This document shows positions 5,218 through 53,116 of a DNA stretch of 64,000 nt, piece after piece; the first letter of the stretch is position 1; the number at the start of each line of letters is the position of its first letter. A program made the translations under genes and the position numbers. Origin of the DNA: an uncultured Thiotrichales bacterium (GTDB taxonomy: Bacteria; Pseudomonadota; Gammaproteobacteria; UBA4575); contig CAZWQM010000003.1 in assembly GCA_964636225.1 (NCBI GenBank), positions 66,172 to 130,171 of the forward strand, in the 5' to 3' direction. The notes below the pieces were generated by a model that made no database searches, was not told the origin of the DNA, and was given only the letters and a program-made list of their open reading frames with translations.

Positions 5218-5380
5218 GAGATGAAACAGGGAATCTGGTGAAATACCAGAACTGCCCCCGCAACGGTAATCAAGTCTAAATAAACAAACATGTCACTGCA
5301 TATTTATGTGGGAAGGCTGTTTATTTATTAGTCTAGTTAAAGACAAAAAACTTGGAAGCCCGGAGACCGGCCTGAGACTG
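5218..5380 (+). ncRNA. cobalamin (adenosylcobalamin) riboswitch in the btuB leader
   Basis: The core GGGAATCTGGTGAAATACCAGAACTGCCCCCGCAACGGTAA is present. A B12-box GGAAGCCCGGAGACCGGCCTG lies downstream and closely parallels the E. coli btuB leader AAGCCCGAAGACCTGCC. A CACTGC...GGGAAGGC pairing is also present. Confidence 0.8.
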
Positions 5381-5517
5381 CGCGGCAAATTGCGGTGGGC
5401 AATTCGGGCTGCTTGGACCACACTCGCTTGATAACAAATATCAGCACGTAAGATAGTGTGCGTCTTGCGCATTCTATAGTCACCGCGTTTGCTCAATTGT
5501 CCAATTAAAGGGGAACA

Positions 5518-7425
5518 ATGAGCTACCCACGCAACCTCCGTTTATTTATGCTACTTTTATGCTGCAGCAATTCATTTGCCACAGATATGCTTCGCTCGAT
5601 ATCTGTCACGGCAAGTCGCAGCACAACCCCAACAGAAAACGTGGCAGGCGCATTAACCGTAATTACAAAACAGGAAATAAAAAACTCACACGCAGTGTTT
5701 GTCTCAGAACTGTTACAGAATGTTCCAGGGCTGAATGTCAGTACTCAGGGAAGTTATGGCGGCTTAACCCAAATACGCATTCGTGGCGCTGAAGCCAATC
5801 ACGTCCAGGTAATAATAGATGGAGTTGAAGTCAACGACCCGGCTAACCCATCCGGTTTTGATTTTGCGCATTTATTGGCAGACAACATCGAGCACATAGA
5901 AATATTGCGCGGACCTCAAAGCGCATTGTGGGGAAGCGATGCTCTAGCGGGCGTGATAAGCATCACCACAGCATCTGCATCGCAAGCTAATGAACTTATA
6001 CTAACAAATACTTATGGAGCAAATAATAGTATCTCAAGTAACCTTCTGTTACTTGCTATCAAAGATAATTTTGACATGGCCATCAGCGGAAGCTTTTTTG
6101 ACACGGATGGATATAATACAGCAACCACAGGGCATGAGCGAGATGGTTACGATAATTCTACGGTCAACATCAAAGTAAATTATTCAATCAAGGATAATAT
6201 AGAGACAGGTATCAGCACTCGCTACACTAATGCCAGTAGTGAATTCGACCCGGCGTCCACAGGAGTACCCACTGACGGGTTTGGTAAAAATGAAATTGAG
6301 CAGATCTATGGCCGTGGTTTTTTTAAGCTGAACACTTTAAATCAACAATGGGTGCATTTCGCAGAAGCTTCATTTCTTGACACGAAAAACACTAGCATTG
6401 ATGAAATTTTTGGCCTCTCAAAATCTGAAGCCGGCAAGGAAAAATTTTCGTACCAGTCAACTTTTCATCTACCATCAGTCGAAACTACATTTATCAACCA
6501 CTCTTTAGCAATCACAGCAGAAAGAGAACAGGAGAGATTCAAACAACAAGGAGCCGCATTTCCAGGATTTAACCCAAATCAACGCCAGAAGATTACTAAT
6601 TACAGCCAGATTGCAGAATACAAAGCAGACTTATTTAGTAATTGGTCACTATCGACTTCACTGCGCCATGATAATAACGATGAATTTGACAATCAGACAA
6701 CTTATCGTGTTGGTGTAAATTATCGACATCCCGCAACTGGCACGAAATTGTACCTAACCCATGGAAGCAGCGCGAAGAACCCGACGTTTACAGAACTATT
6801 TGGCTTTGCTCCGAATAATTTTATCGGCAACGCTGATTTACAGGCAGAAACATCTGAATCTTGGGAGTTGGGTATCTCACAAAATTTATTCCAGCAGCAA
6901 TTACAGTTGGATGCCTCACTTTTTTGGGAAGATTTAATTGACGAAATCCAGACAATATTTCTACCATCTTTTCAGTCTACCGTCATCAATAGCGAGTCAC
7001 GCAGTAAACGTAAAGGTCTAGAATTATCTTTAAATGGAAAACTGTCCAGCAATTTATCTGTCACTAGCTCATATACATATCTAGACGCGCGTGAGCCTGA
7101 TACTTCAGGTAATGATCACACCGAAATACGCCGCCCTAAAAACCAGTGGTCGGGTAACCTGCATTATTTATTTTCAGATCACAAAGCAGGTATTGATGTT
7201 AACGTTAATTATATTGGAGACCGCAGGGATATCGACTTCAGCCAGGGTGATAGATTAACATTGAATGACTACACGCTGGTCAATGCCTGCATAAACTATC
7301 AATTTAACGACAACTTTGAAATATTTGCACGGGCTACCAATTTACTAAACAAAAGCTATCAGGATGTGTTTGGTTTTGAAACCAGTAAATTTTCTGGACA
7401 CGTAGGACTAGAAATAAAACTATAA
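5518..7425 (+). CDS. btuB: TonB-dependent outer-membrane receptor, BtuB-like vitamin B12 transporter
   Basis: It has a signal peptide, a TonB-box-like ISVTASR, a plug domain, and a C-terminal beta-barrel ending in an aromatic residue. It sits directly downstream of the cobalamin riboswitch. Confidence 0.8.
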   Translation: MSYPRNLRLFMLLLCCSNSFATDMLRSISVTASRSTTPTENVAGALTVITKQEIKNSHAVFVSELLQNVPGLNVSTQGSYGGLTQIRIRGAEANHVQVIIDGVEVNDPANPSGFDFAHLLADNIEHIEILRGPQSALWGSDALAGVISITTASASQANELILTNTYGANNSISSNLLLLAIKDNFDMAISGSFFDTDGYNTATTGHERDGYDNSTVNIKVNYSIKDNIETGISTRYTNASSEFDPASTGVPTDGFGKNEIEQIYGRGFFKLNTLNQQWVHFAEASFLDTKNTSIDEIFGLSKSEAGKEKFSYQSTFHLPSVETTFINHSLAITAEREQERFKQQGAAFPGFNPNQRQKITNYSQIAEYKADLFSNWSLSTSLRHDNNDEFDNQTTYRVGVNYRHPATGTKLYLTHGSSAKNPTFTELFGFAPNNFIGNADLQAETSESWELGISQNLFQQQLQLDASLFWEDLIDEIQTIFLPSFQSTVINSESRSKRKGLELSLNGKLSSNLSVTSSYTYLDAREPDTSGNDHTEIRRPKNQWSGNLHYLFSDHKAGIDVNVNYIGDRRDIDFSQGDRLTLNDYTLVNACINYQFNDNFEIFARATNLLNKSYQDVFGFETSKFSGHVGLEIKL

Positions 7426-43900: not shown

Positions 43901-45922
43901 GTGAATAATAGAAGAATTTTAGTTACCAGCGCACTTCCCTATGCCAACGGATCTATCCATTTAGGCCATCTTGTTGAGTATATCCAGACAGATGTGTGGG
44001 CACGCTTTCAGAGAATGTGTGGCCATCAATGCATTTACGTGTGCGCTGATGACGCTCATGGCACGCCGATCATGATTCGCGCACAGCAGGAAGGGATTAC
44101 ACCTGAGCAGCTGATAGCCAAAACCAAGCAGGAACATGAGCAGGATTTTGCTGACTTTCATATCCAGTTCGACAACTTTCACAGCACCCATTCGGATGAA
44201 AACCGGCAGCTGTCCGGTAGTATTTTCAAAGCGTTGCAGGACAACGGATACATCAGTACCAAAACGGTCACGGATTTGTTCGACCCGCAGGAAAAAGTGT
44301 TCCTGCCAGACCGTTTTGTTCGTGGCACTTGCCCTAAATGCAAAGCAGAAGATCAGTATGGTGACAACTGTGAATCCTGCGGGGCCACCTATTCACCCTC
44401 GGATTTAATTAATCCGCGCTCCTCACTAAGCGGTGCGAAACCTGTACAAAAAGAAAACCTGCATTATTTTTTCATGCTGAGCACTCTGGAACCTGCTTTA
44501 AAACAATGGACACAATCCGGCAGTCTGCAGACAGAAATCGCCAATAAAATTTCCGAGTGGTTTAAGGATGGATTGCAGGATTGGGATATCTCACGAGATG
44601 CTCCCTATTTCGGTTTTGAAATTCCCGGCGCGCCTGGAAAATATTTTTATGTCTGGCTGGATGCGCCAATTGGCTATATGGCCAGTTTCAAAAACTACTG
44701 TGATCGTAGCGGATTGAATTTCGATACTTTCTGGAAACCGAACAGTGATACGGAGCTTTATCACTTTATCGGAAAAGATATTGCCTATTTCCATACGCTA
44801 TTCTGGCCAGCCACACTAATGGGTTCAGGCTGGCGCACGCCCACCAGCGTGTACTGTCATGGTTTCCTGACTGTGAACGGACAAAAAATGTCAAAGTCAC
44901 GCGGCACATTTATTAAAGCCCGTACTTATTTAAATTATTTGCAACCGGAATACTTGCGCTACTATTTTGCCGCCAAATTAAATGACGGTGTTTCCGATAT
45001 CGATTTAAATCTGGATGATTTTCAGAAACGCGTGAACAGTGATGTGGTCGGCAAGCTAGTGAATATCGCCAGTCGCTGTGCCGGCTTCATCTATAAAAAG
45101 TTTGGTGCAAAACTGACAGCTGAATTTATTCCGGAAGGCTCACATGCATTTAAGCTTGCCAGCGATAAAAACATCGAAATAAAAGACCTTTACGAGAAGC
45201 GAAAATATTCCGAAGCTATGCGCAACATAATGAGTCTTGCGGATACTGCCAATCAGATTATTGATCAATACAAGCCATGGGAACGTATTAAAGATGAAGC
45301 CAACCAAACCGAGGTACATCAGGTATGCAGCTTTGGCGTCAATATGTTTCATCTCTTAATTGGTTACTTGAAACCAGTCATGCCAGAACTTGCGCAAAAA
45401 TCAGAAGCATTCTTGAATACAGAAATCTGCTGGGATGCCCTGGCGAATGGCAAACCTTTTAATGAAGGTCACGAAATTAACCAATTCAAACCACTAATTA
45501 CGCGTGTTGAAAAAGAAGCTATCGAAAAAATTATTGAAGAGAGCAAACAGGAAACGGCGCCTCAAGCCAGTGACCCTATTAATAATGAAATTTCATTTGA
45601 GGACTTTGCCAAACTGGATTTACGTGTGGCACGCATTGCCAAAGCGCAGCATGTAGAGGGTGCAGAAAAATTACTTCAACTGACTTTAGATCTTGGCGAA
45701 CCTACTGGCGGTGTGCAAAAAAATGTTTTCGCCGGAATCAAAAGTGCTTACAAGCCAGAAGACCTGGAAGGCAAGTTAGTCGTGATGGTCGCCAATCTGG
45801 CACCAAGAAAAATGCGTTTTGGTTTATCTGAAGGCATGGTACTTGCGGCAAGTGGCATCGACAGTGGTTTGTTTGTGATACATCCGGACGAGGGTGCCTC
45901 TGCAGGCATGCGCGTCAAATAA
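43901..45922 (+). CDS. metG: methionine-tRNA ligase
   Basis: HIGH motif [19 protein letters not shown] motif KMSKSRG, zinc knuckles CPKC...CESC, and a C-terminal tRNA-binding domain. Confidence 0.95.
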
Positions 45923-45927
45923 ATCTT

Positions 45928-46563
45928 ATGCCGAGTTCCACGGTTTCTTATAGTAAAACACTGGCGGTCATCGATGAAGAACACTGCATAGGCTGCACAC
46001 TTTGCATAAAAGCCTGTCCATTTGACGCCATCATTGGCGCCTCCAAACAGTTACACACTGTGATAAATGCATTTTGCACGGGCTGCAAACTATGCATAGA
46101 ACCCTGCCCTGTTGATTGCATTTCCATGCAGGAGAATACTGCCCTTAAACATATTCAGCCAGAGCCACCCAACTTCTCAGCACATAATAACTGTTCTCAC
46201 TGCGAGCAATGCATTCCTGCCTGCCCAAAAAATTTGAAACCGGTTTATTTATACGAACACATTCGCCATCATCGATTTTCCCAAGCAGAGGAGGAATCGT
46301 TATCTGAGTGCGCGCAATGTGCTGAATGTAGCCGGGCCTGTCCACAGCATATTCCGCTGGCAGAAACATTTTTCTATGCAAACAAAGTTTTACAATACAA
46401 ACAACAAAAGAAAATATTTACTCAACGAACCAAACAACGTCTTAAAGTTCGCGAACAACGCTTGTCCAATTTAAAATCCGAACAATTGGCGTCATTATCC
46501 ATCAATAAAACTAATCTTGCAGATAAACTGCAAGCACTGAAAAAATCGGCTTTAAATAAATAG
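45928..46563 (+). CDS. 4Fe-4S dicluster ferredoxin-like protein (RnfB C-terminal-domain-like) with a basic tail
   Basis: Two canonical CxxCxxCxxxCP motifs, two further Cys clusters, and a Lys/Arg-rich C-terminus. It lies between metG and nth, as orphan rnfB-like genes do in other proteobacteria. Confidence 0.6.
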
Positions 46564-46576
46564 CGGTTAAATCAAT

Positions 46577-47215
46577 TTGAACAAGGCTAAACGTATAGAA
46601 ATCTTTAGTCGTTTGCGCGCACAAAATCCGCATCCTACGACTGAACTGAATTTCAGCAATGAATTTGAATTGCTGATTGCCGTTATTCTCTCAGCCCAGG
46701 CAACGGACGTAAGCGTTAACAAAGCTACTGACAAGTTGTACAAAGTGGCTAATACCCCCGAAAGCATTCTTAGGCTGGGTGAAACAAAACTAAAAAATTA
46801 CGTAAAAACCATCGGCCTGTATAATACAAAAGCCGGCAACATCATCAAAACCTGCAAAATATTGATCGACAAATACCAGGGGCAGGTCCCGCAAGACCGT
46901 GCCGCTCTGGAGGCACTCCCTGGTGTTGGACGAAAAACTGCCAATGTAGTGCTCAACACAGCGTTTGGACATCCGACTATTGCCGTGGATACGCATATTT
47001 TTAGGGTATCCAATCGCACTGGCATCGCACCGGGCAAGAATGTTCTGGAAGTTGAAAAGCGCCTACTACGCCTGGTACCTGAGGAATTTAAACGCGATGC
47101 CCATCACTGGTTGATTCTGCTTGGTCGTTATACTTGTGTTGCGCGATTACCTAAATGCCCAGAATGTATTATAAACGAACAATGTGAGTACAAGAAAAAG
47201 ACACAAGCACCTTAA
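46577..47215 (+). CDS. nth: endonuclease III
   Basis: An HhH-GPD motif and the C-terminal 4Fe-4S cluster loop CVARLPKCPEC. Confidence 0.9.
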   Translation: MNKAKRIEIFSRLRAQNPHPTTELNFSNEFELLIAVILSAQATDVSVNKATDKLYKVANTPESILRLGETKLKNYVKTIGLYNTKAGNIIKTCKILIDKYQGQVPQDRAALEALPGVGRKTANVVLNTAFGHPTIAVDTHIFRVSNRTGIAPGKNVLEVEKRLLRLVPEEFKRDAHHWLILLGRYTCVARLPKCPECIINEQCEYKKKTQAP

Positions 47216-47411
47216 TTACCCATCCTATCCATTTACTTCCAAGGAACTTGAGCCAGATAATGAGCTCTAACTGTTCGAGAAGACTTGACCATAAGATAAT
47301 TATGGATTTAATTCGCCAAATGACCTGTAATATAACCCTTTGGGAATCGGTCATTATAGTCAGGAATGAAATTCCCGCTTGGATATCCTCAAACAAAGAC
47401 GGAGAAAGTAA

Positions 47412-47705
47412 ATGTCTAAGAAACTTGAACTTAAGCCTATCGCTGCAGCCGTTGGTGCTGCTTTAACTGCAAGTGTTATTACTATGCCTACAGCGAATGC
47501 TGATGCGAACCCATTTGGTATGACTGATCTTTCTTCAGGCTATATGGTTGCTGAAATGGAAGAAGGTAAGTGCGGCGAAGGTAAGTGCGGCGAGAAAAAA
47601 GCTGAAGAAGGTAAGTGCGGCGAAGGTAAGTGCGGCGAAGGTAAGTGCGGCGAGAAAAAAGCTGAAGAAGGTAAATGTGGCGAAGGTAAGTGCGGCGAGA
47701 AATAA
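47412..47705 (+). CDS. secreted Cys-Gly repeat precursor peptide (EGKCG-repeat, HvfA/bufferin-like candidate RiPP metallophore precursor)
   Basis: A Sec signal peptide with a predicted ...TANA|DA cleavage site. The C-terminal 49 residues are EEGKCGEGKCGEKKAE-type repeats, and all 7 Cys sit in G-K-C-G. A DUF692/DUF2063 pair lies downstream. Confidence 0.75.
   Translation: MSKKLELKPIAAAVGAALTASVITMPTANADANPFGMTDLSSGYMVAEMEEGKCGEGKCGEKKAEEGKCGEGKCGEGKCGEKKAEEGKCGEGKCGEK
47561..47700 (+). repeat. coding tandem repeat of a 15-nt unit GGTAAGTGCGGCGAA (about 8 copies with variants, organised as 45/60-nt super-units)
   Basis: A direct read of the DNA shows gaagaaggtaagtgcggcgaaggtaagtgcggcgagaaaaaagct repeated with one extra 15-nt unit in the second copy. 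Confidence 0.9.
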
Positions 47706-47772
47706 TCACCGCCTCATTACTACGGGTATCCTCGTTGATACCCGCATATTAGATTCAGAAGCATAATATTCT

Positions 47773-47810
47773 GGTCTACTGACGGCAGGCACTTGAATTA
47801 GGGCCTGCCG
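47773..47810 (+). terminator. rho-independent terminator after the precursor gene
   Basis: A perfect 8-bp stem CGGCAGGC / GCCTGCCG with a 12-nt loop, followed by TTTTTTATTT. Confidence 0.7.
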
Positions 47811-47867
47811 TTTTTTATTTGAGATCTACTATTTATAATAACTGTTCGGCTGCGGCCGAGATCCAAA

Positions 47868-49378
47868 ATGCAAATGCATGAACTATCAGGGTTTGCTATG
47901 ACAACGCTTGAGATTCTGGCGTTTTCATTTATTTTCACTCTTGGTGCAGGTGTTATCTTTGTGGCGGTTTTATATATTATCGACCGCTCCCAAACCAAAC
48001 ATGCTATCCGCCATAATTATCCTGTTATTGGCCGATTTCGTTATTACTTTGAACATTTAGGTGAATTCTTTCGCCAGTATTTCTTTACCCTGGACCGTGA
48101 GGAATTGCCTTTTAACCGAGCGGAAAGAAGCTGGGTATACCGCGCGGCAAAAGATATCGATTCGACTGTTGCATTTGGTTCAACAAGAGATTTATACAAG
48201 CCTGGCACAGTGATCTTTGGCAATTGTCTATTTCCGAAATTAAGCATTGACTCTGCCGAGCCGGAAGAAGTCACCATCGGGCCTTACTGTAGAAATCCTT
48301 ACAGCACACGTTCTATCTATAATATTTCCGGAATGAGTTATGGTGCTATTTCTAAACCTGCCGTGCTGGCTTTATCCAATGGCACACGTGAAGCCGGTTG
48401 CTGGTAAATACCGGTGAAGGTGGCCTATCTCCTTATCATCTGAAAGGTGGCGCTGACATTGTATTTCAGATTGGCACGGCCAAATATGGTTTACGAGATG
48501 ACAACGGTCATTTAAATACTGAAAAATTAAAGTCGATTGCGGCTCATCCACAGGTAAAAATGTTTGAGCTTAAATTAGCACAAGGTGCCAAACCCGGGAA
48601 AGGCGGCATACTGCCAGCGGCCAAGGTCAATCAGGAAATTGCTGCTATACGTGGCATCCCCGTAGGTACAGACTCGATTAGCCCAAACCGACATATTGAT
48701 GTTAATTCGATTGATGAATTACTCGATATGCTGGTTTCGATTCGCGAAACGACTCAAAAGCCAGTGGGTTTTAAAACCGTTATCGGTACCCGCCAATGGG
48801 TCGATGATTTATTCAGCCAAATTAATGAACGTGGCATCGAAAATGCCCCGGACTTTATCACCATTGACAGCGGCGATGGCGGCACCGGTGCCGCGCCAAT
48901 GAGCCTGATGGATAATGTAGGCTTGCCGATTAAACAAAGCCTGCCTTTTATTATTAATAAATTAAACCAGTATAAATTACGCGAGCGTATAAAAGTGATC
49001 ACATCGGGTAAACTTATCACTCCTGTGGAAGTCGCCTGGGCATTAGCCACAGGGGCCGACTTTATTGCTTCTGCACCCGGCTTTATGTTCTCGATTGGTT
49101 GTATTCAGGCCATGCAATGTAATAAAAATACCTGTCCAACCGGCATAACGACACATGATAAAGACTTACAAAGCGGGCTTGATCCACACAATAAAGCAAT
49201 TCGTGTAAGGAATTATGTCAAAAACATGGTCTATGAAGTAGGTATGATCGCTCATTCCTGCGGCGTGGTAGAGCCGCGCCAGTTGCGCCGACATCACGCA
49301 TACATTGTAAGTCCTCAAGGAAGATCTATACCACTGGACGAGCTATATTCCGCAGAAGCCACTTACATGCATACATAA
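47868..49378 (+). pseudogene. FMN-dependent glutamate-synthase-domain oxidoreductase (GltB-domain-2 / YerD-like, N-terminal membrane anchor) split by a -1 frameshift at about nt 48403
   Basis: ORF 47868..48407 ends ...GMSYGAISKPAVLALSNGTREAGCW*. ORF 48398..49378, in the -1 frame, continues (L)VNTGEGGLSPYHL, giving the conserved junction AGCW-VNTGEGG. The break is at a GG run that would restore the frame if it were GGG. Downstream the motifs GxxSGDGGTGAAP and TCPTG are intact. Confidence 0.7.
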
Positions 49379-49405
49379 AACTAACATAGCCTGGGGAGAG
49401 CCATC

Positions 49406-50020
49406 GTGATAAGCATTATTCATTTCGTAAATACTATTTTTGACAAACTACGTGCTTTGGATTTTCTGGGCCCGTTAGCACTACGATTATATTTGGTTCC
49501 TATCTTCTGGATGGCAGGCACTCATAAAATCGACTTCTCAACTTTTATGCCTTTTGAATCTACCGTCAGCTGGTTTGGAAATCCAGACTGGGGACTGAGG
49601 CTGACTTTCCCTGCCCTGATGGCATTCCTGGCGGGCTGGACTGAAGTGCTTGGTGCAATTTTTTTACTGGTCGGTTTTGGCGTACGCTGGATCTCCATTC
49701 CCTTAATCGTGACTATGTTGGTCGCTATTTTTTCCGTTCATCTCAGTAACGGTTGGTTAGCCATTGCATCTGGCTCCGGTATGTTTGCCACCGAACGCAC
49801 TATGGGAGCCATTGAACGCCTGGATGTTGCCAAGGACATTCTAAAAGAACATGTAAATTATTCATGGTTGACAGAAAATGGAAGCTTCGTGGTACTCAAT
49901 AACGGTATTGAATTCGCCACCACATACCTGATTATGTTACTGGTACTATTTTTTATAGGTGCGGGAAAATACTTCAGCGTGGATTATTATTTAAGTCTGG
50001 TGAATCCAAGACAGAACTAG
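49406..50020 (+). CDS. DoxX-family membrane protein
   Basis: Four hydrophobic helices in DoxX-like spacing. It sits directly upstream of the DUF692 gene, as in other DUF692/DUF2063 clusters. Confidence 0.6.
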   Translation: MISIIHFVNTIFDKLRALDFLGPLALRLYLVPIFWMAGTHKIDFSTFMPFESTVSWFGNPDWGLRLTFPALMAFLAGWTEVLGAIFLLVGFGVRWISIPLIVTMLVAIFSVHLSNGWLAIASGSGMFATERTMGAIERLDVAKDILKEHVNYSWLTENGSFVVLNNGIEFATTYLIMLLVLFFIGAGKYFSVDYYLSLVNPRQN

Positions 50021-50067
50021 TACAGATTAAATTACTCAAAACTGAAGATACATAATAAAAAGAGAAT

Positions 50068-50928
50068 ATGATGACTAATCAATATTGTGTCAGTGGCGCG
50101 GGACTGGGACTCAGACGCGGTCATATGTTTGAGGAGTTGCTGGAAAGCAATCCGGCACAAATCCAGTTTATGGAAGTGGCACCTGAAAACTGGATAGGAA
50201 TGGGTGGCCGGCTGGGCAAACGTTTTCGCCAATATACAGAGCGCTTTGACTTTGTCACACATGGTTTGTCCTTATCCATTGGCGGGCCAACACCACTCGA
50301 TATCAATCTTGTAAATGACATCAAAGCCTTTATGCAACAGCATAATATTCTCAAATACACTGAACATTTAACTTATTGTTCAGATCAAGGCCATCTTTAC
50401 GACTTAATGCCTATTCCGTTTACTTCTGAAGCCGTTAAATATGTTGCCGATCGAATTAAGCAGGTTCAGGACATTCTTGAGCAGCGCATCGCAATGGAAA
50501 ATGCATCCTATTACGCCGCGCCCGGCAAAGAGATGGAAGAAATTGATTTTCTCAAAGCGGTATTAGAGGAAGCCGATTGCGAGCTGTTACTGGACGTAAA
50601 TAACATTTATGTAAATTCTATTAACCATGGTTACGACCCGGTCGAGTTCCTGGTTTCATTGCCAAAAGAACGCATTTGCTATTGTCATATCGCCGGTCAT
50701 TTCAATGAAGCCGAAGATCTTATCGTAGATACGCATGGCGCGAATGTGATTGATCCGGTCTGGTCTCTGCTGGATAAGGCTTATGAAGTATTTGGTGTAT
50801 TCCCAACCTTGCTGGAGAGAGATTTCAATATTCCCAAATTACCTGTGCTGATGCAGGAAGTGGATCAAATCTGTCAGTTGCAGGAAAAATGGTCGTCCTA
50901 TACCCGCAAGGCAACATCTCATGCCTGA
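50068..50928 (+). CDS. DUF692-family enzyme (MNIO: multinuclear non-heme iron oxidative enzyme; MbnB/HvfB/TglH-like peptide maturase)
   Basis: 286 aa with a TIM-barrel family pattern: GLGLRRGH ... FMEVAPENW ... THGLSLSIGG ... EHLTYC ... MENASYY ... LLLDVNNIYVNSINHGYDP ... CHIAGH. These are the conserved His/Asp/Glu metal ligands of the family. Confidence 0.8.
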   Translation: MMTNQYCVSGAGLGLRRGHMFEELLESNPAQIQFMEVAPENWIGMGGRLGKRFRQYTERFDFVTHGLSLSIGGPTPLDINLVNDIKAFMQQHNILKYTEHLTYCSDQGHLYDLMPIPFTSEAVKYVADRIKQVQDILEQRIAMENASYYAAPGKEMEEIDFLKAVLEEADCELLLDVNNIYVNSINHGYDPVEFLVSLPKERICYCHIAGHFNEAEDLIVDTHGANVIDPVWSLLDKAYEVFGVFPTLLERDFNIPKLPVLMQEVDQICQLQEKWSSYTRKATSHA

Positions 50929-51688
50929 GTCTGCACAAAAATTTAGAGATGTGCAGTATCAATTCACTGCACACATAAGGGATCCTGAAAAGAATCCGGC
51001 GCCTTCAAATATTGAAGATCGGCGCATGGAAATTTACCGTGGCCTGCTCTATCGCAATGTAGAGAATTTTTTATCTACCGGCTTTCCTGTTACACGCAAA
51101 TTATACAGCGAGGAAAACTGGCATAAAATGGTCAGGGACTTTTTCGCAACACACAAGAGTCATTCGCCTTACTTCAAAGACATATCAAAAGAATTTTTAA
51201 TTTACTTGAATAAAGAACGTACAGCACAAAAAGAAGACCCGGCTTTTCTGTGTGAATTAGCGCATTATGAATGGCTGGAGATCATGTTGTCCTTTCTGGA
51301 TGCTGATATCGACTGGCCTAGTATCAATAAAGACTGCAACCTGATGGAGAGCATCCCCGTATTAACACCTTTTATGCAGCTCAATCAATACGATTATCCT
51401 GTGCATAAAATTAAACCAAACTTTCAACCACAACAGCCTTCAGAGCAGCCAACTTTTATTTTAGTCTACCGCGACCAACAGGACAGTGTAGGCTTTATGG
51501 AAATGAACCCGATGACAGCGCGACTGGTTGAATTGCTTTCAAACAATGAAAGTGAGACGGGCGAGCAAATACTATTAACCATAGCGAAAGAGATACCTCA
51601 ACTTGCTAAGGATGTGATTATGCACGGCGGTCATTCCGCCATGATCCAGCTACGTGAAAAAGATATTCTGCTTGGCTGTAAAAAATAA
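50921..51688 (+). CDS. DUF2063-family partner protein (MbnC/HvfC-like RiPP maturation protein)
   Basis: The N-terminus FRDVQYQFTAHIRDPEKNPAPSNIEDRRMEIYRGLLYRNVENFLSTGFPV is the characteristic DUF2063 opening. It overlaps the DUF692 gene by 8 nt, suggesting translational coupling. Confidence 0.8.
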   Translation: MPESAQKFRDVQYQFTAHIRDPEKNPAPSNIEDRRMEIYRGLLYRNVENFLSTGFPVTRKLYSEENWHKMVRDFFATHKSHSPYFKDISKEFLIYLNKERTAQKEDPAFLCELAHYEWLEIMLSFLDADIDWPSINKDCNLMESIPVLTPFMQLNQYDYPVHKIKPNFQPQQPSEQPTFILVYRDQQDSVGFMEMNPMTARLVELLSNNESETGEQILLTIAKEIPQLAKDVIMHGGHSAMIQLREKDILLGCKK

Positions 51689-52726: not shown

Positions 52727-52961
52727 GTCATCCTTCCTTATCGTTGTCAGCAGCTGATGGATAATTACTCAGCCAATACTAAAATTTCTTAATGACATTA
52801 TCTCTTTATTCAATCCATATGAAAACTGGCCCAGTCAAACAATATTGATAAACGTGTAAATAATTCACTCATTAAGGTGCATATAGTGGGTTATGTTATT
52901 ACATTGTGCTTATTTACTAAGCACAGGAGATAGAATCGAAATCAGTAAAGATTAAGACTCA

Positions 52962-53116
52962 TGCTGTTTGATAAAATCACGGATAAAACGTCGGATCTCT
53001 CTCGCGGCACTGGTATCCAGATCATCACATAATGAGACAAATTCATCCCGCTCTTTTTTGTGAATGCGAATCACTAGCTGGCTGTTTTTATTTTTATTTT
53101 TTGCTTTATCGCTCAT
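52962..53116 (-). CDS. unlisted 51-aa ribbon-helix-helix-like small protein (it falls below the ORF-track length cutoff)
   Basis: The reverse-strand translation is MSDKAKNKNKNSQLVIRIHKKERDEFVSLCDDLDTSAAREIRRFIRDFIKQH*. The stop is the TGA at 52962-52964. It has a basic N-terminal beta-strand and then two helices. A perfect palindrome, ATATACA-A-TGTATAT, lies about 25 nt upstream of its start (about nt 53140-53154). Confidence 0.45.

Follow-up and report, generated by a model that had tools for sequence, protein, structure and literature searches.

A probable hvf-type RiPP metallophore cluster with an apparently decaying GltS-like/HvfX module in an uncultured Thiotrichales bacterium

The window analysed here, a stretch of 64,000 nucleotides from an uncultured Thiotrichales bacterium, most probably carries an hvf-type RiPP metallophore cluster of the oxazolin/captophorin kind ('Buf_EGKCG'), in which a GltS-like gene and hvfX form an optional module that is decaying in this lineage (probability of roughly 0.85). 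The gene order is precursor, GltS-like gene, hvfX, hvfB and hvfC, all on the forward strand. The first-pass annotation had described the locus as an MNIO/DUF2063 metallophore cluster of the Haemophilus Cys-Gly-repeat type and as the most likely biologically new system in the window. The assignment was supported by the scores of HvfX, HvfB and HvfC, all of which exceeded the NCBIfam cutoffs. The novelty was not sustained. The hvf/oxazolin 'captophorin' class has been described in Haemophilus, Neisseria and Fontimonas (PMC11252979; PMC12668002/PMC13097082), and about 2,000 Buf_EGKCG precursors have been surveyed and catalogued (PMC12452194). The regular EGKCG repeat, which had been called unusual, is the defining motif of this family. 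Judged by its gene content, the locus is an ordinary member of the known oxazolin/captophorin class of secreted copper-binding peptides.

Precursor peptide and hvf genes

The precursor gene is preceded by an intergenic region (47216-47411, forward strand) that separates it from nth. A Shine-Dalgarno sequence, GGAG, is located in this region about 9 nt 5' of the precursor ATG, and an alignment with the close relatives L001, L002 and L005 revealed common blocks such as TGTAATATAA. A consensus scan for sigma-70 promoters 5' of the precursor gave sites that were not above those of shuffled sequence, and none was assigned. When the whole window was scanned against Rfam, no RNA element came up in the vicinity of the cluster.

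The precursor gene (47412-47705) encodes a peptide of 97 amino acids. By inspection, residues 1-30 (47412-47501) form a Sec-type signal with the n-region MSKKLELK, the h-region PIAAAVGAALTASVITMP and an AXA site, TANA/D, and this pattern is retained in the orthologues. A conserved segment, NPF-x6-SGYMVA, lies between the signal peptide and the EGKCG repeats. The peptide has exactly seven GKCG motifs and seven Cys residues, all within residues 50-97, and the EGKCG motifs are grouped 2+3+2 with EKKAE between the groups; the orthologues carry 7-12 motifs of this type. At the DNA level, the repeat region (47562-47698) is a tandem array with a period of 15 and 9.1 copies, or alternatively with a period of 60 and 2.3 copies (97% match). 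A chance low-complexity reading frame was excluded because the precursor matched the NCBIfam model NF050137, 'KCGExKCG_twice', with 54.6 bits (cutoff 19.5, E=6e-15). The earlier description of a secreted 97-residue peptide with seven GKCG repeats was thus confirmed by the ORF, the motif count and this match. There was no Pfam match for the precursor. Its score against the HvfA equivalog model NF050188 was 59.4 bits, below the cutoff of 95, and the counterpart of the C38/C43 pair in the N-region of H. influenzae HvfA is absent. By these comparisons the precursor is a member of the HvfA family and not an HvfA equivalog.

An intrinsic-terminator-like hairpin with a U-run (47781-47822, forward strand) is located between the precursor and the downstream genes, in agreement with the terminator noted at first reading. 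The hairpin itself covers 47781-47812 with the stem ACGGCAGGC/GCCTGCCGT. A consensus terminator scan gave sites not above shuffles and passed over this hairpin owing to its loop-length limit; the region was folded directly. The fold of 47700-47830 has an energy of –44.3 kcal/mol (z = –5.42), none of 200 shuffles was as stable, and the stem is preserved through compensatory changes in L001 and L002. The hairpin is probably an attenuating terminator that sets a high ratio of precursor to enzymes.

The product of hvfX (49406-50020), a DoxX-family membrane protein, matched NF050144 with 215.5 bits (cutoff 80) and also PF07681. Such a protein is a frequent but not obligatory part of EGKCG clusters. 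Its reading frame is intact. Three derived substitutions, G65R, P67T and G150V, are found at nearly invariant positions; in the other homologues, these columns hold Gly in 34 of 35, Pro in 35 of 35 and Gly in 33 of 35 sequences, respectively, and HvfX of the sister haplotype (L170-173) retains Gly, Pro and Gly. The activity of HvfX in the window is doubtful because of the substitution of these three residues.

The hvfB gene (50068-50928) and the hvfC gene (50921-51688) overlap by 8 nt. HvfB, the MNIO/DUF692 enzyme, matched NF003818 with 440.8 bits (cutoff 360), PF05114 (E=3e-102) and PDB 3BWW (E=4.8e-77). The columns of H64, H99, E143, D175, N178, H206, D220, H222 and E249 are invariant in alignment A4, and the R15/R16 pair is conserved there. 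We take the His, Glu, Asp and Asn columns to be metal ligands from the known MbnB/HvfB structures. The database copy of this protein (P0121) begins at the second ATG, 50071. HvfC matched NF050145 with 304.6 bits (cutoff 142), together with PF09836 and PF22106 (a DUF2063 N-domain and an RRE-like C-domain) and PDB 3DEE (E=3e-9). Matches to DUF692 and DUF2063, on which the first-pass reading depended, were therefore obtained for both proteins above the NCBIfam cutoffs, and the DoxX, DUF692 and DUF2063 gene positions, with the last two genes overlapping, were borne out by Pfam and NCBIfam. Between strains, hvfB shows one nonsynonymous and three synonymous differences, and hvfC shows none and four.

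The GltS-like gene and its linkage with HvfX

The gene between the terminator and hvfX (47868-49378, forward strand) corresponds to a GltS-like, membrane-anchored oxidoreductase of the FMN/[3Fe-4S] type and is a pseudogene by its split Pfam match and its alignment to intact homologues. The encoded protein has an N-terminal TM helix, a PF01645 (Glu_synthase) domain and a C-x5-C-x4-C motif, which aligns to the cluster motif of B. subtilis GltS (7MFM). The FMN barrel and this motif are common to the glutamate synthase large subunit (PF01645; PDB 7MFM, 1EA0). However, the GltS-like protein, with about 500 residues and a TM helix, stands alone: the amidotransferase, central and C-terminal domains of GltS are missing. 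Its score against the full GltB large subunit model NF008730 was 112.4 bits (cutoff 1047), and PF01645 is the only domain present. From these features we infer a membrane-anchored flavin/[3Fe-4S] electron-transfer protein. The early impression that this gene stands outside the canonical cassette was upheld.

The order GltS-like gene, hvfX, hvfB and hvfC is intact in relatives at 70-87% identity, and the GltS-like gene was found in the hvf clusters of all closest relatives among the matches listed. In L005-7, it stays with hvfX, hvfB and hvfC even though the precursor is 5 kb away. The co-occurrence of this gene with DUF692 neighbourhoods, proposed earlier as a survey, was assessed in 80-locus samples drawn among the matches listed, in which percentages are rough. 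The gene does recur, in 5 of 80 HvfB-centred loci (about 6%, roughly), where it abuts the DoxX gene in 5 of 5; it is absent from the rest of these listed matches. Seen from the GltS-like gene, HvfX recurs as a neighbour more often than any other gene, at 10 of 83 loci among the matches listed. The adjacency with HvfX-family genes occurs in at least four different gene orders or orientations with gaps of 3-50 nt, and at four loci an HvfX-family gene adjoins the GltS-like gene without hvfB or hvfC within 8 kb. The literature and supplements searched held no mention of Glu_synthase, PF01645 or FMN together with DUF692, DoxX or MNIO, though such a link may still be published.

The linkage could be fortuitous: a widespread gene of housekeeping type may have come to lie next to hvfX in a single gammaproteobacterial lineage, and its loss would then say nothing about hvf function. 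Among the matches listed, in 72 of the 80 species sampled, no hvf gene lies within 8 kb of the orthologue (53-73% identity), and a dedicated subfamily of hvf-linked genes was not supported by a crude NJ tree in which linked and unlinked copies are interleaved. The MAG SGMAG-20 carries one linked (L001) and one unlinked copy (L050). PF01645 is also not listed in published surveys of these clusters. Most orthologues are unlinked, the linked copies form no clade in the crude tree, and the gene evidently has a life outside hvf clusters. Nevertheless, the repeated adjacency to HvfX-family genes in several orders with tiny gaps, the rank of HvfX as commonest neighbour, the arrangement in L005-7 where the gene accompanies hvfX, hvfB and hvfC and not the precursor, and the confinement of the radical hvfX substitutions to the lineage with the broken GltS-like gene all argue against a bystander, which is a possible but rather unlikely explanation. 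The pattern of adjacency is more consistent with an optional redox module, made up of the GltS-like protein and HvfX, in some of the hvf clusters.

Inactivation of the GltS-like gene and decay of hvfX

The GltS-like gene, described at first reading as one glutamate-synthase-like FMN enzyme, is split between two reading frames, with ORFs at 47868-48407 (179 aa) and 48398-49378 (326 aa). The PF01645 match is divided accordingly, with positions 42-96 in the 179-aa ORF and 98-367 in the 326-aa ORF. Intact 503-aa homologues read TGG-ATA/ATG-AAT at the junction. In the window the sequence is TGG-TAA-AT: a single base has been lost after TGG (48402-48404), which creates a TAA stop codon at 48405-48407. 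The repaired protein is 87% identical to the intact homologues over 100% of its length. The four-gene operon reported earlier therefore stands for its DoxX, DUF692 and DUF2063 ORFs, which are intact, but not for its first gene, and the FMN gene on which the claim of novelty had rested is a frameshifted pseudogene in the window.

A gene that still functions, be it through a sequencing or assembly artefact, programmed frameshifting or two working polypeptides, would be compatible with reading frames that are open over the full length save for the single indel. A TTG at 48398, which lies 7 nt before the stop and overlaps the stop-codon region, could also allow re-initiation. This explanation is improbable, however. 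L008 (99.96% identical) carries the same frameshift, and so does L170 (99.65% identical, 32 SNPs), which comes from other sequencing runs; assemblies from different runs differ by 0.35% elsewhere without further indels, and 15 other syntenic genes are unbroken. An assembly error was rejected on these grounds. Programmed frameshifting or a functional split gene is unlikely, as the site has neither a homopolymer nor an X-XXY-YYZ slippery heptamer, the split falls within the PF01645 barrel, and invariant residues have subsequently been substituted in every haplotype (R405P and A74T in the window, A398D in L170, S465F in L008). On this comparison of haplotypes, the GltS-like gene is a pseudogene inactivated by a 1-nt deletion fixed in the lineage.

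The decay seems to be shared with hvfX. The ratio of nonsynonymous to synonymous differences is 7:1 in the GltS-like gene and hvfX together and 4:17 across the remaining genes (29 coding differences in all, from two metagenome haplotypes; Fisher p = 0.0014), and the changes in these two genes land on invariant residues. The damaging substitutions in the GltS-like gene and hvfX, together with the constraint on hvfB and hvfC, suggest that the GltS-like protein and HvfX are a dispensable redox pair and that hvfA, hvfB and hvfC are maintained. The premature stop could also be polar on hvfX, hvfB and hvfC, in which case the whole operon would perhaps be poorly expressed.

Expected product and relation to known systems

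The cluster most resembles the oxazolin/hvf system of nontypeable Haemophilus influenzae (PMC11252979). Both have a Sec-signal precursor with C-terminal EGKCGEGKCG repeats and an MNIO, a DUF2063/RRE partner and a DoxX protein, and the window proteins pass the HvfB, HvfC and HvfX equivalog models. In contrast to oxazolin, the window has seven sites instead of six, a precursor below the HvfA cutoff that lacks the N-region Cys pair, a terminator dedicated to that precursor, the gene order given above and an additional, broken FMN/Fe-S gene. The oxazolin host is a pathogen, whereas the window host is a free-living uncultured gammaproteobacterium. The captophorins fontiphorin (Fontimonas thermophila) and gonophorin (Neisseria gonorrhoeae) also derive from EGKCG-repeat precursors, in which 5-thiooxazole is introduced by an MNIO with a PME1/DUF2063 partner (PMC12668002/PMC13097082). 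Fontiphorin likewise has seven sites, and the Arg pair discussed for FonB is the one conserved in the window HvfB. Unlike the window, captophorin clusters have no reported GltS-like gene (PMC12668002/PMC13097082), and the N-terminal core motif of the window precursor, NPF-x6-SGYMVA, sets it apart.

Bufferins Buf1/Buf2 of Caulobacter are also Sec-exported, thiooxazole-bearing RiPPs that buffer periplasmic copper and are made by an MNIO and a DUF2063 protein, often with DoxX (PMC11626156). DoxX can be dispensed with in that system, much as hvfX seems to be decaying in the window. However, bufferin precursors (DUF2282, BUF_6/12Cys) are small folded proteins with 4-6 Cys and without EGKCG repeats (PMC11626156). 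A bufferin identity was rejected: the window enzyme scored 257.6 bits against the BufB model NF050167 (cutoff 310), and the precursor gave no Pfam match. In methanobactin (MbnA/MbnB/MbnC), a copper ligand, there an oxazolone/thioamide, likewise arises through four-electron oxidation of Cys in a ribosomal peptide by an MNIO-family enzyme. MbnA consists of a short leader and core and lacks a Sec signal, in contrast to the window precursor with its signal and repeats, and methanobactin clusters carry dedicated export and uptake genes. This identity was rejected too, with 41.5 bits against the MbnB model TIGR04159 (cutoff 325) and a precursor unlike MbnA.

In H. influenzae, HvfBC modifies all six EGKCG Cys, removing 4 Da at each, and the modified peptide binds copper (PMC11252979). 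The oxazolone/thioamide chemistry assigned to oxazolin in that work, which the first-pass annotation had followed, has been replaced by 5-thiooxazole for oxazolin, fontiphorin and gonophorin by the same and an independent laboratory using NMR, alkylation and UV (bioRxiv 10.64898/2026.06.05.730506; PMC12668002). Sec export followed by periplasmic copper binding has been demonstrated for bufferins (PMC11626156). What follows on modification, export and copper binding at the present locus is extrapolation from homologues that share about 50-60% identity. HvfB is predicted to turn each EGKCG Cys into 5-thiooxazole. The 97-aa precursor would be made in excess, with its leaky terminator splitting off the enzyme genes. 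HvfB, dependent on iron and O2, would act with its RRE partner HvfC in the cytoplasm and oxidise the seven EGKCG Cys by four electrons each, so that every site would become 4 Da lighter and the peptide as a whole about 28 Da lighter. The peptide would leave via Sec and be cut by signal peptidase after ANA30. The resulting 67-aa product may bind copper through thiooxazole N/S ligands and thus act as a buffer against copper or oxidative stress, either in the periplasm or extracellularly. That it carries instead oxazolone/thioamide pairs as in methanobactin, or unmodified thiols like a small periplasmic metallothionein, is very improbable: the former was the original oxazolin assignment and, at –4 Da per Cys for both structures, cannot be told from 5-thiooxazole by sequence, but it is opposed by the reassignment and by an enzyme that scores as HvfB (441 bits) and not as MbnB, and the latter by intact and constrained hvfB and hvfC.

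The core result adds one more environmental member to a well-populated, annotated RiPP family and changes little. The new part is modest and consists of an FMN/[3Fe-4S]-type gene that abuts HvfX-family genes in several orders. It offers a lead on two points, the role of DoxX/HvfX and the in vivo source of reducing equivalents for MNIO enzymes. HvfBC requires DTT or ascorbate in vitro. Tentatively, and at rather long odds, the GltS-like protein and HvfX might be a dedicated redox pair serving thiooxazole-peptide (captophorin) systems, and this lineage a natural double knock-out showing that the HvfABC core and the pair can be separated. If so, the pair might act as the physiological reductant that is still missing, either bringing the MNIO diiron centre to its active Fe(II)/Fe(III) state or holding the substrate Cys in reduced form; alternatively, its role might be that of a quinone-linked Cu(II)/thiolate reductase. 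Nothing would be lost if the link were merely syntenic. Because a flavin/Fe-S protein recurs beside HvfX, sometimes without hvfB or hvfC nearby, and decays with hvfX in one lineage, it provides a concrete candidate partner and a testable prediction.

Family identity of the cluster

The three downstream genes of the cluster were identified on the forward strand from their open reading frames and Pfam matches, namely DoxX (hvfX, 49406-50020), DUF692 (hvfB, 50068-50928) and DUF2063 (hvfC, 50921-51688), the last two sharing an 8-nt overlap. The first-pass annotation had named an MNIO/DUF2063 RiPP metallophore family and proposed a profile-HMM search of the DUF692 and DUF2063 proteins. This search was run, and the family assignment was borne out. 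Besides their Pfam matches, the two proteins scored above the NCBIfam cutoffs for HvfB, the MNIO-type RiPP maturase (NF003818, 440.8 bits against 360), and HvfC (NF050145, 304.6 against 142), as did the DoxX protein for HvfX (NF050144, 215.5 against 80). The precursor passed the HvfA-family domain model (NF050137, 54.6 against 19.5) and fell below the strict HvfA equivalog cutoff (NF050188, 59.4 against 95). The MNIO enzyme failed both the MbnB model (41.5 bits against 325) and the BufB model (257.6 against 310). Relatives with solved structures are the Histophilus MNIO 3BWW (E = 4.8e-77) and NGO1945 3DEE (E = 3e-9). Across 12 aligned HvfB relatives, H64, H99, E143, D175, N178, H206, D220, H222 and E249 are invariant or nearly so, and we take these nine columns to match the MbnB/HvfB metal-ligand pattern. 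The site-3 residues of the MNIO pattern are named in a preprint (10.64898/2026.07.17.739211). The R15/R16 pair is also conserved in the same alignment and has been discussed for substrate gating in FonB (PMC12668002).

Several systems of this type are already described. Oxazolin is the product of the H. influenzae hvf operon, in which a precursor with a Sec signal carries AEGKCGEGKCG repeats; HvfBC oxidises six Cys within these repeats to give a copper-binding product (PMC11252979). Fontiphorin, with seven modified sites, and gonophorin are other EGKCG peptides, captophorins being the name given to the class (PMC12668002). A survey with the 'Buf_EGKCG/oxazolin' profile catalogued about 2,000 precursors, mostly in Pseudomonadota; their clusters hold RiPP, MNIO, DUF2063 and DoxX genes in varied orders, and occasionally oxidored_molybd or ferric-reductase genes (PMC12452194). 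Therefore, the first proposals of a biologically new system and of an unusually regular repeat substrate are not upheld. The oxazolone/thioamide chemistry assumed for the Cys residues is likewise outdated, because the modification in EGKCG peptides has been reassigned to 5-thiooxazole (PMC12668002). The locus thus adds one more member to the oxazolin/captophorin class, with a minority architecture in which a GltS-like gene stands beside hvfX.

The precursor and its chromosomal setting

The precursor ORF (47412-47705, forward strand, 97 aa) is preceded by GGAG about 9 nt 5' of its ATG on the same strand. Residues 1-30 resemble a Sec signal peptide, with MSKKLELK, a hydrophobic core and then TANA/D. 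From residue 50 to residue 97 the peptide is made up solely of EGKCG units, grouped 2+3+2 with EKKAE between groups, and this part contains seven GKCG motifs. All seven Cys of the precursor lie within EGKCG, the same number as the modified sites of fontiphorin. A segment of the form NPF-x6-(S/A)GYMVA (47502-47560, residues 31-49) directly follows the predicted cleavage site and is conserved in orthologues, distant ones among them (L001, L002, L005, L014 and L018, related loci from other genomes or assemblies). It is a candidate recognition element for HvfC, the RRE protein. H. influenzae HvfA carries a Cys pair in its N-region, whereas the precursor studied here and these five orthologues do not.

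The precursor DNA is a tandem array, with period 15 in 9.1 copies or period 60 in 2.3 copies (97% match). The number of EGKCG motifs differs among close relatives: 7 here (47562-47698), 10 in L001 (7366-7734), 9 in L002 (7503-7841), 12 in L014 (2442-2873) and 8 in L023 (7512-7853). Together with the 97% identity of the 60-nt units, these counts suggest that the precursor is still expanding and contracting through repeat slippage or recombination. Beyond the precursor on the forward strand, a strong hairpin (47781-47812) is followed by a U-run; the region folds at z = -5.4, with none of 200 shuffles equally stable, and the stem is preserved through compensatory changes in two relatives.

The cluster lies directly 3' of metG, a 4Fe-4S ferredoxin gene (RnfB-like, 45928-46563) and nth (together 43901-47215). 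This setting is common to all close relatives (L001-L007 examined), and nth still adjoins the cluster in the more distant L027; the chromosomal position is thus an old one, with no obvious mobile element carrying the cluster. At L027, a gene for a DUF1841 protein (PF08897, E = 6e-53; 5375-5800) takes the expected place of the precursor gene between nth and hvfB, and no EGKCG precursor was found in the 17 kb covered at that locus. On the reverse strand of the window, a syntenic 54-aa ORF (52952-53116; 82% identical in L002) has a weak ribbon-helix-helix match below cutoff (PF19839, E = 0.005). Its product could be a small regulator, and no connection to the hvf genes was found. The sole Rfam match in the 64-kb window was a cobalamin riboswitch (RF00174, 5175-5389, forward strand, 108 bits, E = 3.6e-26), which is unrelated to the cluster.

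Apparent decay of the GltS-like gene and hvfX

The gene layout first read from this DNA was essentially correct, except that a frameshift was missed and the glutamate-synthase-like gene is not intact. Its Glu_synthase domain is split, by ORF and Pfam, between a 5' part of 179 aa (47868-48407, forward strand, Pfam positions 42-96) and a 3' part of 326 aa in another frame (48398-49378, forward strand, Pfam positions 98-367). A one-base repair restores 503 aa with 87% identity over 100% of the length to intact 503-aa homologues. Where homologues read TGC-TGG-ATA/ATG-AAT at the break point, the window has TGC-TGG-TAA-AT, which means that one A was lost, at a site that is not a homopolymer. Within 48390-48420, TGGTAAAT would mark the pseudogene form, and TGGATAAAT would count against it. 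Two other assemblies show the same 179+326 split, L008 (Logan assembly, SRR15213107; 99.956% identical) and L170 from a different run series (SRR15927518; 99.65% identical, 32 SNPs, no indels), and each of 15 other genes syntenic with L002 maps as a single full-length alignment. From the shared split and the unbroken genes we conclude that this lineage carries a genuine, fixed lesion, and that the GltS-like gene is a pseudogene in this organism. A second genomic copy could explain the tolerated loss of the hvf-linked one; none was found within the 64-kb window.

Substitutions between the window haplotype and L170, in small numbers, were counted as nonsynonymous:synonymous. The counts were 4:1 for the GltS-like gene, 3:0 for hvfX, 1:3 for hvfB, 0:4 for hvfC and 3:10 for four flanking genes. 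The first two pooled gave 7:1 against 4:17 for the remaining genes (Fisher p = 0.0014). Outgroup polarisation assigned A74T and R405P (an invariant Arg) in the GltS-like gene to the window strain, A398D to L170 and S465F to L008. In hvfX, G65R, P67T and G150V are common to the window, L008 and the related L009. Among 35 other homologues these columns hold G in 34, P in 35 and G in 33, and L170-173 retain the ancestral residues. Small as the numbers are, this pattern fits a GltS-like/hvfX accessory pair that is now dispensable, with hvfB and hvfC still constrained. The apparent decay of hvfX is echoed in Caulobacter, where bufD1 (doxX) is not required for modification or copper protection (PMC11626156).

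Association and possible role of the GltS-like protein

It could be argued that the GltS-like gene has no link to the hvf system. In a scan centred on this gene (80 GTDB species among the matches listed, 53-73% identity, 8-kb neighbourhood), hvf genes were within 8 kb in 8 loci and the other 72 orthologues were without hvf linkage. A crude NJ tree does not group the linked copies as a clade, and one MAG (SGMAG-20, GCA_045106935.1) holds a paralogue inside an hvf cluster (L001, JBGCFN010000017.1) and another with no hvf neighbours (L050, JBGCFN010000050.1). However, the order GltS-like, HvfX, HvfB, HvfC is unbroken in relatives at 70-87% identity, even in CP046178.1, where the precursor lies 5 kb off beyond three opposite-strand genes. 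HvfX is also the commonest recurring neighbour (10 of 83 loci among the matches listed), and stand-alone DoxX neighbours score above the HvfX model cutoff. The adjacency recurs across differing gene orders: precursor, GltS-like, X, B, C; precursor, B, C, one other gene, GltS-like, X; B, C, X, GltS-like; and GltS-like with X alone, in either order. Precursor, B, C, GltS-like was seen as well. In a scan centred on HvfB (80 metagenome loci among the matches listed, 62-71% identity), the GltS-like gene was present in five loci and abutted the DoxX gene in all five. No mention of it in such clusters was found in the literature and supplements searched. In five Rhodobacterales loci, an Oxidored_molyb (MsrP-like) gene follows the GltS-like orthologue (L046, 5990-6904, PF00174, E = 1.7e-33; also L060, L063, L064 and L070). 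It belongs to the domain family that the Buf_EGKCG survey listed among occasional extra genes, a parallel that may be due to chance or to a periplasmic redox theme common to both.

At its N-terminus the GltS-like protein carries a hydrophobic helix, and the positive charges lie C-terminal to this helix, so that the catalytic domain is predicted to face the cytoplasm. Its C-x5-C-x4-C motif aligns to that of B. subtilis GltS; in glutamate synthases this motif binds a [3Fe-4S] cluster. HvfBC needs added reductant in vitro, for the iron cofactor and the substrate thiols. Therefore, a flavin/Fe-S partner is a plausible candidate for the physiological electron source of HvfBC. The interest of the locus is low to moderate and is confined to this GltS-like/HvfX lead.
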